56,593 nucleotides of DNA from Halobacteriales archaeon QS_8_65_32 (GTDB lineage Archaea > Halobacteriota > Halobacteria > Halobacteriales > Halococcaceae), in assembly GCA_003022925.1 (NCBI GenBank), contig PXRY01000100.1, positions 28,111 to 84,703 on the forward strand. Direction: 5' to 3'. The notes beneath the pieces are model-generated. The model was not told the DNA's origin. It saw only the letters and a list, made by a program, of their open reading frames with translations, and did not search any database. This document shows positions 39,685-43,197 of the stretch, piece by piece; position 1 is the first letter of the stretch; each line of letters begins with the position of its first letter. The position numbers were made by a program, and so were the translations under genes.

Positions 39685-40545
39685 TCAGTCGCTTCCGCCG
39701 CGCAGTCGTGCGACGCATTCGATGTTCCAGGCGTAACCCCGGCCGTCCTCAGTGGGGGTTTCAAGTATCAACGGGCGCTCGCCGAGGGCGTCGTCCGAAA
39801 CGATCGCCGCCATCCCCGCCGCGCCGATCTCACCCTCGCTGACGTGGGCGTGTTCGTCGGCGTTCGACCCGCGGGGGTGCTTCGAGTCGTTCAGGTGGAT
39901 GCATCGAAGGTGATCGAGTCCGACCGTCGAATCGAACGCCTCGACGGTTTCTGCCACGCCTTCGGGCGTCGAGAGATCGTAGCCCGCGGCGAAGGCGTGG
40001 GCGGTGTCGAGACAGACCCCGATATCGGTATCGGCGAGGTCCCGGACCCGCCCGAGGTGGGCGAAGTCGTCGCCGAGTTTCGTCCCGCTACCGGCGTCAC
40101 TCTCTATGAGCAACGTCACGCCCTCGGGTACGTCGAGCGCGTCGATGGCGCTCGCGGCGTTTTCCAACCCCGCCTCGACGCCCGCGCCGGTGTGTGCGCC
40201 GAGGTGGACATTCACGTACTCGATTTCCAGTTGGGCAGCGGCGTCGAGTTCTTTCTGTAGACTCGAAATCGACTTCTCGCGTAAGTCGTCCTTCGGGGTC
40301 GCGAGATTTACCAGATACGAGGAGTGAATCACCCACGGGCCGTCGATCGCGTCCTCGCTTTCGTCTCTGAAGCGTTCGGCGATGTCGGCGTCGATCGGCG
40401 GTTGCTTCCAGACCTGCGGGGAGTGGGTGAACACCTGCCCGCAGTTGCCGCCGACGTCGAGCTGGCGCTCTACTGCGTTGTCGATCCCGCCGGCGACCGA
40501 GACGTGCGCGCCGACGTGTGCCGCGTGCGTGTCGGACGTAACCAT
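39685..40545 (-). CDS. nfo: Deoxyribonuclease IV (endonuclease IV)
   Basis: [55 protein letters not shown].. (AP endonuclease family 2 metal ligands). Confidence 0.9.
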
Positions 40546-40651: not shown

Positions 40652-40903
40652 ATGGGGACGAAGACGATCAGCCTCGACGACGCAGCATACGATCGCCTGC
40701 GCGCGGAAACCGCGAGGACGAGAGCTTCAGCGATGCGGTCAAACGGATCACCGATGTCGTGGCAGCGGATTGGCGGCGCGGGTTCGGCCGGTACGGCGAG
40801 GACGAGGCGGATGCCGACGTGTTCGAGGAGACGATGCAGCGGTTTGGCGCGATCACGCCGAGGAGTTCGTCTGGAACTGGTGACTGTCTATGTCGAACAG
40901 TAG
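40652..40903 (+). pseudogene. Archaeal VapB-like antitoxin (DUF217-like), frameshifted, no cognate toxin
   Basis: MGTKTISLDDAAYDRLRAE continues as REDESFSDAVKRITDVVAADWRRGFGRYGEDEADADVFEE in another frame, with the shift at about 40705 (gaaaccgcgagg). The downstream sequence runs into the CRISPR remnant instead of a PIN-domain gene. Confidence 0.55.
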
Positions 40904-41147
40904 ATCGGGATAACCTCAACCTCAACCTCATAGGGAGTTCGTTTGCAACCCGGTTCATCGGTCACCGTCTCGGCGTCGTCAACGTCGCTTCAATCCCACA
41001 AAGAGTTCGTCTGTAACTCGGCACGGGGGTGATCGGCGATGACTGAACAAGCTTCGATCCCACAAGGAGGTCGTCCGTAACGCAGACAGAGATGTCTGGT
41101 TTCCGCATCGGATGCAGCTTCGATCCCACAAAGAGTTCGTCTGTAAC
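40847..41147 (-). CRISPR. Orphan CRISPR remnant: three good and two degenerate repeats, haloarchaeal type I-B-like
   Basis: The minus-strand repeat is GTTACAGACGAACTCTTTGTGGGATTGAAGC, at 40987-41017, 41051-41081 (variant) and 41117-41147. Degenerate copies lie at 40919-40949 (22/31) and 40847-40877 (3' half only). Spacers are 33-41 nt. Confidence 0.8.
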
Positions 41148-41327
41148 GATGCCAGATCCGCGAGGGACAGAGTCCGTATCCGTCGCTAGGTACATAGTGT
41201 TTCCGTCGACCTCCGATACCCAGCTCACCCCCGGGGAGTCGATGGAAACCAGTGGCTCGGACGGCCGAGGGTGATCGGACTCGCGTCCGGCGAGGATACA
41301 AATACCGGGATCGGAGCAAAACGTCTC

Positions 41328-41775
41328 ATGGACGAACCGGTCGGCCTCACGGTCGGCGAGCAGGCTCCCGACGCCGCCGCGACGCTCGTTCGCCCCGGCG
41401 GCGAGACCGAACGCGTGGCGCTGTCGGCGCTGGTTCGCGAGCGCCCGGTACTGCTCTCGTTTTACCCGATCGATTTCAGCCCCGATTGCATCCGAGAGTG
41501 GTGTGCGTTCCGCGACTTCGAGTGGTTCGCGAGCGGCGAGAACAACCGATCTCGGGCTCGCGGACGCCTTCGGCGTCAAATACCGGGCCTTCGGCGTCTC
41601 GACGTGCGCCCGCCGGTCGTGTTCCCTCGTTGACGAAGACAGGGAGGTCAGGTATCGTTGGGTCGCCGAACACTGGCTCGATCCGACGCGAGACGTCCCC
41701 TCGATGGCCGAACTGTCGACGGGGATCCGCGAGGCACTCGACATCGAAGCCCCCGATCGCTTCGGGATGGCCTGA
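41328..41775 (+). pseudogene. Peroxiredoxin/redoxin family protein, internally deleted and frameshifted
   Basis: MDEPVGLTVGEQAPDAAA..PVLLSFYPIDFSPDCIREWCAFRDFEWFASGENN switches frame near 41545 to DLGLADAFGVKYRAFG..RRSCSLVDEDREVRYRWV. The Cys-to-beta-strand spacing is about 30 residues shorter than in BCP-type peroxiredoxins. Confidence 0.6.
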
Positions 41776-41873: not shown

Positions 41874-42722
41874 CTAGCGTGTCGCCCGACCGGTCGTCAG
41901 GCCCCGGTTCCACTCGTCCGTGGCGTACTTCCCTTCCGCACGTTCGTGTGCACGCGAGAGTTCGTCGTCGGTCCACTCGCCCGCATCGGCGTTCGCCCAC
42001 TCGCGAAGCGTTCGGGCGAGAGTCTCGACCGCTTCGTTGCGACCGACGGCGGCGTGGGCGTCGATGCCGGTCACTCGCTCGCAAAAATCCCGTAGAGTGG
42101 CGTCGGGGTCGGCGAAGACCGCGAGGTGACGGTCGGCGTCGACGGAGTAGGTGAGCGAGCCGTGCTGGACGACCGCATCCCGGCGGCGGTACTGGGCGTT
42201 GCCGCTCACTTTTTTCTCGCCGCCGTCCTGGCTGTCCTCTCCGTCCCCGCTCACGACGACGTCGTGGGCCGGGTGCAGCGCCCGCAGGTAACAGGCAGGC
42301 TCGTAGATCGCCGGCTGTGAAGCCTCGGCGAAGCGCGCGTCGACGCCCAGCCGCGAGAACGCCGCCAAGACCGGCTCGCAGAGTCGTTCGTACGAGTCCA
42401 TGAGGTCGCCGGGGAGTTCCTCGACGGGCGCGACGATCGAATAGGAGACGTCGCCCCACGAGTCATGATAGATCCCCCCGCCGCCAGTCTGGCGGCGCAC
42501 GACGTCGATCCCCTCGCGCTCGCAGAACTCCCAGTCGACGGTTTCGGGCGCTTGGTGGTAGCCGAGCGAGAGGGTCGCGGGCTCCCAGCGGTAGACCCGG
42601 AGGGTCCGCGGGCCACCGGCGGCGGCGGTTTCGGCGGCTATCTCGTCGAGCGCCATGTTCATCGCCCCGCCGCGGACGTCCTCAGCGATGAGTCGCCAGT
42701 CCCGGTCGGCGAGCGTCGTCAT
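41874..42722 (-). CDS. lplA: Lipoate--protein ligase A family protein
   Basis: MTTLADRDWRLI..GAMNMALDEIAAE..LRVYRWEPATLSLGYHQ..VVRRQTGGGGIYHD..KVSGNAQYRR. ATG at 42722. Confidence 0.85.
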   Translation of the reverse strand: MTTLADRDWRLIAEDVRGGAMNMALDEIAAETAAAGGPRTLRVYRWEPATLSLGYHQAPETVDWEFCEREGIDVVRRQTGGGGIYHDSWGDVSYSIVAPVEELPGDLMDSYERLCEPVLAAFSRLGVDARFAEASQPAIYEPACYLRALHPAHDVVVSGDGEDSQDGGEKKVSGNAQYRRRDAVVQHGSLTYSVDADRHLAVFADPDATLRDFCERVTGIDAHAAVGRNEAVETLARTLREWANADAGEWTDDELSRAHERAEGKYATDEWNRGLTTGRATR

Positions 42723-42850
42723 AGTTCGAGAAGGGGCCAGGACCCGAAAGCGATTGCGATGATCGAAGTCCGAAACGTGCGAGCCCACTGCTGCGATGAT
42801 TGGATACACCGGGTGAACGGACACGCCCTGGCGAAGGTTGGGTTAGTTTA

Positions 42851-43197
42851 GCAGCTTTCAGGAAGATCCGCTGAGACCGTTTTAGAAGCCCCCGACCGCT
42901 CGGCTTCTGCTCATGGGCCGGAGGCCCGTTCGCATGGTCCGCGGGGCTCTTCGAGTCCCGCGTGGTTCGGGAGGACGGAGTTCTCCCGTCATCACGAGAG
43001 AGCTTTGCTCTCTCGAACGACTACCCGCGGCTCGCTGTCGTTCAAAAGGCCGCGCGAGGCGCGGCCTTTTGTGATGACGAAAGGCGCTTCGCGCTTTTCG
43101 TTATGCCGAGAGACGCGAAGCGTCTCTCGTAGCACTCTCCCGAGCTAACGGGCGCTTCGCGCCCGTGACCGCCCGGCCCCTTCCAGTCCCACCCGAA
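42851..43197 (-). repeat. Mosaic hairpin element, copy 6 (complete)
   Basis: The + strand begins GCAGCTTTCAGGAAGATCCGCTGAGACCGTTTTAGAAGCCCCCG (right terminus, reverse complement), holds 8 hairpins, and ends CGCCCGGCCCCTTCCAGTCCCACCCGAACC (left terminus, reverse complement). Confidence 0.9.

Follow-up and report, generated by a model that had tools for sequence, protein, structure and literature searches.

A probable vestigial orphan type I-B CRISPR array beside a broken vapB gene in an uncultured Halobacteriales genome

A bona fide chromosomal CRISPR locus lies in the window (the whole stretch of 56,593 nucleotides analysed here, on contig C100 of a 3.28-Mb assembly with 127 contigs and 77.75% completeness). 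It is of a known kind, the ordinary orphan remnant, and not a new system. The locus probably represents a vestigial, non-functional leftover of a type I-B array, which has ceased to confer immunity and is now drifting. Its signs of decay are plain: the internal repeat R2 has 4 substitutions, R4 retains 22/31 matches and has undergone slippage, R5 is truncated, the stems are weak and no cas gene was detected. The value of the finding lies mainly in annotation, in that a real CRISPR locus with its leader is now marked in an uncultured Halobacteriales MAG; it brings no new mechanism. What it adds, modestly, is a decay series across four species and the junction between a repeat and vapB.

Repeats, spacers and leader

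A sequence-only reading of this DNA had described three conserved repeats followed by two degenerate ones. Its placing of repeats and spacers is borne out by direct reading and a repeat scan, which recover the three full repeats R1-R3, and the 22/31 matches that it had counted in R4 are found again (Table 1). R1 differs from R3 by 1 mismatch. With 27-31 of 31 positions in agreement, R1-R3 form a series of at least three near-identical direct repeats of a length within the 23-47-nt range of CRISPR repeats, and the spacers between them are unique and of similar length. The earlier reading had held that the CRISPR call would fail if fewer than three repeats stood up to scrutiny; three do, far beyond chance. 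If at most 3 mismatches are allowed, the full repeat yields 2 matches where shuffled sequences give an expectation of 0.00, and the 15-nt pattern of the 5' half-repeat, which is itself derived from the data, yields 5, all on the minus strand and spaced by 64-72 nt, against 0.02 expected. A chance origin of the repeats is excluded. The spacing of 72 nt between R4 and R5 is explained by one extra unit of hexamer slippage, without which it would be 66 nt; the unit belongs to a tandem AACCTC (3.2 copies on the plus strand, 40912-40930) that has arisen from the 3' end of R4.

Table 1. Features of the array and its surroundings (positions in the window)
Feature	Position	Strand	Remarks
AP-endonuclease-family gene	39685-40545	-	flanks the array
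vapB pseudogene (PF02697-type antitoxin)	40652-40862	+	two 1-nt deletions, from alignment to the intact G014:C40 pair
Truncated repeat R5	40863-40877	-	first 15 nt remain (GTTCCAGACGAACTC), fused directly to vapB sequence
Relic spacer S4	40878-40918	-	41 nt including an extra 6-nt slippage unit; ~35 nt without it
Degenerate repeat R4	40919-40949	-	22/31 matches; 3' end enlarged by hexamer slippage
Spacer S3	40950-40986	-	37 nt
Repeat R3	40987-41017	-	GTTACAGACGAACTCTTTGTGGGATTGAAGC; nearest to the Haloferax form; Rfam CRISPR-DR24 30.8 bits (gathering score 35)
Spacer S2	41018-41050	-	33 nt
Repeat R2	41051-41081	-	internal; 4 substitutions relative to R3
Spacer S1	41082-41116	-	35 nt
Repeat R1	41117-41147	-	31 nt, leader-proximal; Rfam CRISPR-DR24 25.1 bits (gathering score 35)
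CRISPR leader	41148-41262	-	~115 nt; canonical haloarchaeal type I-B kind, by homology
LplA	41874-42824	-	flanks the array on the leader side

The closest well-described relatives of this array are the type I-B loci of H. volcanii (P1 and P2 on pHV4, C on the main chromosome; PMC6546412, PMC3945376), which share its repeat family but have a 30-nt repeat, GTTTCAGACGAACCCTTGTGGGATTGAAGC, instead of the 31-nt form found here. In that species an 8-nt 5' handle and a 22-nt 3' handle derive from the repeat, and the promoter lies within the leader (PMC6546412). The resemblance to the Haloferax type I-B repeat, noted in the earlier reading, is confirmed by comparison with the pHV4 repeat, from which R3 departs by no more than T4A, an inserted base and a single C-to-T change. 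This comparison recovers the family pattern GTTxCAGACGAAC...GTGGG.TTGAAGC together with the 8-nt 5'-handle region; the Rfam CRISPR-DR24 matches to R3 and R1, both on the minus strand, remain under the gathering score. Handle region and orientation logic are the same in the two organisms, and the 3' 8 nt of R1, ATCGAAGC, would form the 5' handle of a crRNA. However, the window has 3 full repeats where the pHV4 locus has 40, and its repeat shows one extra base, a weakened stem and internal mutations, while the trailer is truncated and no cas gene was detected in the genome. In all window copies the stem amounts to -2.6 to -4.7 kcal/mol, compared with -7.1 for the Haloferax repeat and -10.2 for that of a second array, on contig C55 of the same assembly. 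Across the genome collection, the 31-nt repeat pattern is carried by only 1 related MAG.

The sequence directly upstream of R1 aligns over 41148-41262 with the leader of the C55 array, the corresponding loci in three sister species and the P1 leader of H. volcanii pHV4, which adjoins cas6-cas8b-cas7-cas5-cas3 and is followed by its long series of repeats. In its conserved core (~41192-41249), a C-run/G-run is enclosed by two inverted 12-nt arms (41199-41210 and 41238-41249), and the paired GTCGAC-GGAAAC arms are present in the homologous H. volcanii leader as well. A conserved leader shared with arrays of the same type thus precedes the first repeat. Recognition of these ~115 nt, by homology, as a canonical type I-B leader is new relative to the earlier reading, which had put transcription on the minus strand and the leader beyond 41148; this is the very place where it was located. 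Leader, repeat family and strand therefore define a haloarchaeal type I-B CRISPR locus. The leader presumably holds a promoter.

In a leader-only search, the leader core was present in 55 of 301 Halobacteriales genomes, often as two copies 8-13 kb apart, an arrangement that would suit a cas cassette placed between two arrays, as in H. volcanii. In other genera the leader is usually followed by at least 20 repeats within 1.5 kb downstream. The window's core is 81% identical to the core of G279, from a distant genus that has long arrays, as against 64-68% to its own syntenic orthologues; it lies nearer to the order-wide consensus than these orthologues do, which fits continued constraint.

That the repeats are not CRISPR at all, but a tandem repeat of chance or coding origin or a piece of a mobile repeat element, is extremely improbable. 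Such a reading could point to the shortness of the array and to full-length Rfam matches that fall under the gathering threshold. Against it stand a canonical leader directly upstream, whose homologue belongs to a CRISPR locus studied by experiment, a repeat near-identical to that of H. volcanii, unique spacers of canonical length, the chance expectations of 0.00-0.02 and the presence of the same leader and repeat at the syntenic site of relatives. Leader homology and the chance tests effectively refute it.

The trailer end and its toxin-antitoxin neighbours

At the trailer end the array abuts a plus-strand vapB gene. The earlier claim that this VapB-like gene is frameshifted was upheld by DNA alignment to the intact vapB-vapC pair of a sister species, located on G014:C40 (L059), in which Pfam supports both the vapB antitoxin (PF02697) and its PIN-domain vapC partner. 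By comparison, the window copy has lost its last ~40 codons and the whole of vapC, and a Pfam search with the broken window ORF gave no match. The homology to G014:C40 ends at ~40862, precisely where the half-repeat starts, and R5 was therefore cut in mid-repeat and fused to the vapB stump rather than gradually mutated. The outermost repeat, previously regarded as progressively degenerate, is thus a truncated one with vapB homology beginning exactly at the cut, and the proposal that the array abuts a broken toxin-antitoxin locus is supported. Whatever once lay beyond R5 has been lost along with the 3' part of vapB and with vapC. A vapBC cassette formerly situated beside or within the array has lost its 3' part and its toxin gene, and the stump is now joined inside a repeat. 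Erosion toward the trailer, which had also been suggested, describes R4 and R5, both damaged there, but not the whole array, since the internal R2 carries its own substitutions and all stems are weakened.

The site that corresponds to the intact pair is found elsewhere in this genome and is empty: G000:C84:8380-8570 measures 190 nt compared with ~1190 nt in G014, and its flanks are 76-82% conserved relative to G014:C40. The vapB-vapC cassette is therefore mobile or variable, and the sole copy in this genome is the broken one at the array.

Toxin-antitoxin genes also adjoin the second mini-array, that of contig C55 (L004, G000 contig C55 1-436). It has three repeats and a homologous leader, and an orthologue on G014:C29 (L006 1231-1532). 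The C55 repeat belongs to the same 31-nt family as that of the window, with 3 differences, but its copies are identical to each other save for one base and have kept a 6-bp stem, whereas the window stems are weakened. Between C55 and G014:C29, identity reaches 96.7% over the 270 nt upstream, leader included, compared with 74-76% for the downstream MNT and HEPN genes, and the spacers differ; this suggests either recent exchange of the leader-side segment or strong constraint on it. Given the state of its repeats and of the leader side, the C55 locus therefore looks younger or better maintained than that of the window.

On G014:C29, a MazE/AbrB-type antitoxin gene lies upstream of the mini-array, and the ORF behind it was judged by eye to be a putative PIN toxin. 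About 160 nt past this ORF, the contig holds a solitary full repeat with a very degenerate second one and without a leader (G014:C29:34056-34126; L006 minus 440-510). On visual inspection, the downstream flank of this solitary repeat and the trailer of a 12-repeat array in another sister species, G015 (G015:C29), have a short GGGATACAAGGG motif in common, and the solitary repeat may occupy the place of that array. This would be a second case of a toxin-antitoxin cassette abutting a truncated array.

cas genes and the same site across the genus

Haloarchaeal cas operons often reside on plasmids or in IS-rich islands and bin poorly. The absence of cas genes from the window, stated in the sequence-only reading, extends to the whole assembly. 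Profiles for Cas1, Cas6, Cas7/Csh2 (TIGR02590), Cas5h and Cas3 gave nothing above cut-off anywhere in it, window included, and tblastn with every ORF of at least 120 aa from the type I-B cas regions of two relatives returned zero cas homologues in 3.28 Mb. PF01905 (DevR) proved unsuitable as a Cas7 model for haloarchaea, as it gave no match even in the Haloferax control. A cognate cas6-cas8b-cas7-cas5-cas3(-cas4-cas1-cas2) set was not found in this 77.75%-complete assembly, for which reason we class the locus as a type I-B-type array and not as a complete system. Apart from the window's array and the three-repeat array on C55 the assembly contains no other, and blastn-short and a k-mer CRISPR finder detected none with at least 4 repeats; the k-mer finder overlooked the array of the window because R2 is mutated.

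With no detectable cas gene in the genome, the array is most likely an orphan, as had been proposed. However, orphan status is unprovable, because the MAG is incomplete and because an array far from its cas genes is normal in H. volcanii, where array locus C lies on the main chromosome and the cas genes on pHV4 (PMC6546412). A mini-array that still works, transcribed from an intact leader and supplying crRNAs in trans to a type I-B Cascade whose genes lie on a replicon or island absent from the MAG, is clearly less likely than a vestige. The 22% of the genome that is missing, and the fact that the type I-B cas clusters of two sister species run off contig ends, are in its favour, as is the usual separation of array and cas genes in Haloferax (PMC6546412); not one cas fragment was found in 3.28 Mb, however, and Cas1 was detected in none of the 4 genus genomes.

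The MAG is related to Atacama halite MAGs, and its sister species differ from it. In G014, the nearest named relative (MAG Halobacteriales archaeon QH_6_64_20), cas6-cas8b and the start of cas7 are preserved up to a contig end, and in G016 a contig end likewise cuts cas6-cas8b-cas7-cas5-cas3 (L058, G016:C58:86700-92712). The cas6 and cas5 genes of G016 are each spread across two frames, which reflects cas decay or else indels of the assembly; in these MAGs, frameshifts may have arisen through errors of assembly. In G015, whose genome is 79% complete, no cas gene was detected; there, a leader at a contig start is followed by 12 identical 30-nt repeats and then by 2 degenerate terminal ones (L060, G015:C29:1-1000). 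The type I-B cas genes of G014 and G016 and the healthy G015 array thus indicate that CRISPR-Cas was recently active in the genus. Cas1, detected nowhere in the 4 genomes of the genus, was detected in 6 of the 13 from the neighbouring genus. In a synteny test for a clean cas deletion, the sequences on either side of the cas clusters in G014 and G016 turned out to be mosaics that map to many different contigs of the present assembly.

The site of the array, between the AP-endonuclease-family gene and LplA, holds a leader and 1-5 repeats in all 4 species of the genus. One 30-nt repeat is left at the syntenic locus of G014, and one or two badly degraded repeats with a mutated leader at that of G016. 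At the locus of G015 (L024, G015:C15, 1307-1470), a variant repeat with 4/8 handle positions altered (ATCAATGT in place of ATTGAAGC) occurs as three near-identical copies, so that repeat duplication must have continued after the handle had mutated. No spacer is common to any of the species or loci, the cross-matches being all repeat-to-repeat or flank-to-flank. Occupation of the same site in all 4 species, together with unshared spacers, therefore implies that the locus dates back to the ancestor of the genus and remained active, with turnover of spacers, after speciation. Its shrinkage now proceeds independently in each lineage. Two other features of the leader side were observed in passing. 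An AhpC/TSA peroxiredoxin gene next to the leader (41329-41640, plus strand) matches Pfam over the first ~50 profile positions only and lacks an internal segment found in G014:C18; it is probably a pseudogene. A non-coding element of ~160 nt at 42843-43000 has at least 45 copies in the genome, with 82-96% identity.

Spacer targets and functional status

The earlier proposal to search the spacers against haloviruses, plasmids and the host genome was carried out and uncovered no protospacer. In the genome itself no spacer has a self-target or any match above 18 nt. S1 has no match with up to 3 mismatches in 400 Halobacteriales genomes, and S2 and S3 have no protospacer in 21 family genomes. Among the INPHARED phages only Ralstonia phage noise at E~0.9 appeared, among the PLSDB plasmids only matches to leader and repeat, and in IMG/VR the 22-23-mers of five spacers found no protospacer. 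In two metagenome scans, neither the leader-repeat junction nor the repeat was found. Absence of protospacers is usual for environmental archaea.

By analogy with H. volcanii (PMC6546412), the leader would drive a short pre-crRNA, which Cas6b, if present, would cut 8 nt before the 3' end of each repeat. The product would be at most two well-formed crRNAs (S1 and S2) with AT(C/T)GAAGC 5' handles, and perhaps a third (S3) that ends in the degenerate R4. Transcription, the processing sites and the loss of function at this locus are what we infer from these comparisons. For a mini-array that still works, it is favourable that the leader core is well preserved, that R1 and R3 are nearly perfect and that the 8-nt handle region is intact in R1-R3. 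Nevertheless, just two to three usable spacers would be left to it, none of them with a protospacer found; substitutions as numerous as those of the internal R2 are rare in actively adapting arrays, and the stem is weakened in every repeat of the window. The vestigial orphan is therefore the reading that we prefer.

Such orphan or degenerate arrays are left behind after cas loss, as exemplified by the type I-F CRISPR4 remnants of E. coli (PMC8616872). The array of the window resembles them in being small, in having no cognate cas genes, in occupying a fixed site across related lineages and in degenerating. The E. coli orphan arrays carry anti-cas spacers, for which interference was shown (PMC8616872), whereas the spacers of the window match no cas genes. 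An anti-cas array of the CRISPR4 type was rejected here, as only chance matches of up to 13 nt were found to 104 kb of type I-B cas loci from the relatives and H. volcanii.

Toxin-antitoxin genes commonly cluster with defence loci, in a non-specific manner. A more particular association is reportedly provided by CreTA, a module within the cas operon of the Haloarcula hispanica type I-B system, in which two pseudo-repeats are said to flank one pseudo-spacer that targets the creT promoter, the toxin itself being an RNA. Like CreTA, the locus of the window combines degenerate repeats of the same haloarchaeal type I-B family with a toxin-antitoxin association. Unlike CreTA, it has a normal leader, several spacers of ordinary length, no cas operon and a broken vapBC of the protein type. 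A CreTA module was discarded for want of a cas operon and of any spacer match above 18 nt anywhere in the genome.

It is very unlikely, more generally, that the array is kept for a non-immune function, such as a CreTA-like or toxin-antitoxin-linked regulatory RNA. The spacers, which are not conserved between species, speak against a conserved regulatory guide; they match the cas loci at chance level only and have no self-target in the genome. The persistence of one chromosomal site in all 4 species, each time with a recognisable leader, would agree with such a role, as would the toxin-antitoxin genes that accompany both mini-array loci, vapB in the window and abrB-PIN plus MNT-HEPN at C55/G014:C29. 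However, the genes that adjoin the array of the window are broken, and the clustering of toxin-antitoxin with defence genes is too common to be specific.

For the vestigial orphan, the site in four species offers a graded picture: a single repeat, three variant repeats, three repeats with two relics, and a nearly erased copy. Together with the cas genes of the sister species, it forms a small natural time-course of CRISPR-Cas decay, and it shows that a type I-B system, once active in the genus, is disappearing from one lineage after another. That the mini-arrays of the genus are selectively retained and are not mere debris seems quite unlikely to us. The idea arises because the leader and 1-5 repeats persist in 4 species while cas genes are lost or eroding, and because toxin-antitoxin cassettes occur repeatedly at, or fused into, the ends of arrays. 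The repeats would then serve as recombination or landing sites for these cassettes, or the mini-arrays, driven by their leader, might have a cas-independent or standby role, in the latter case ready for use on the arrival of a cas plasmid.
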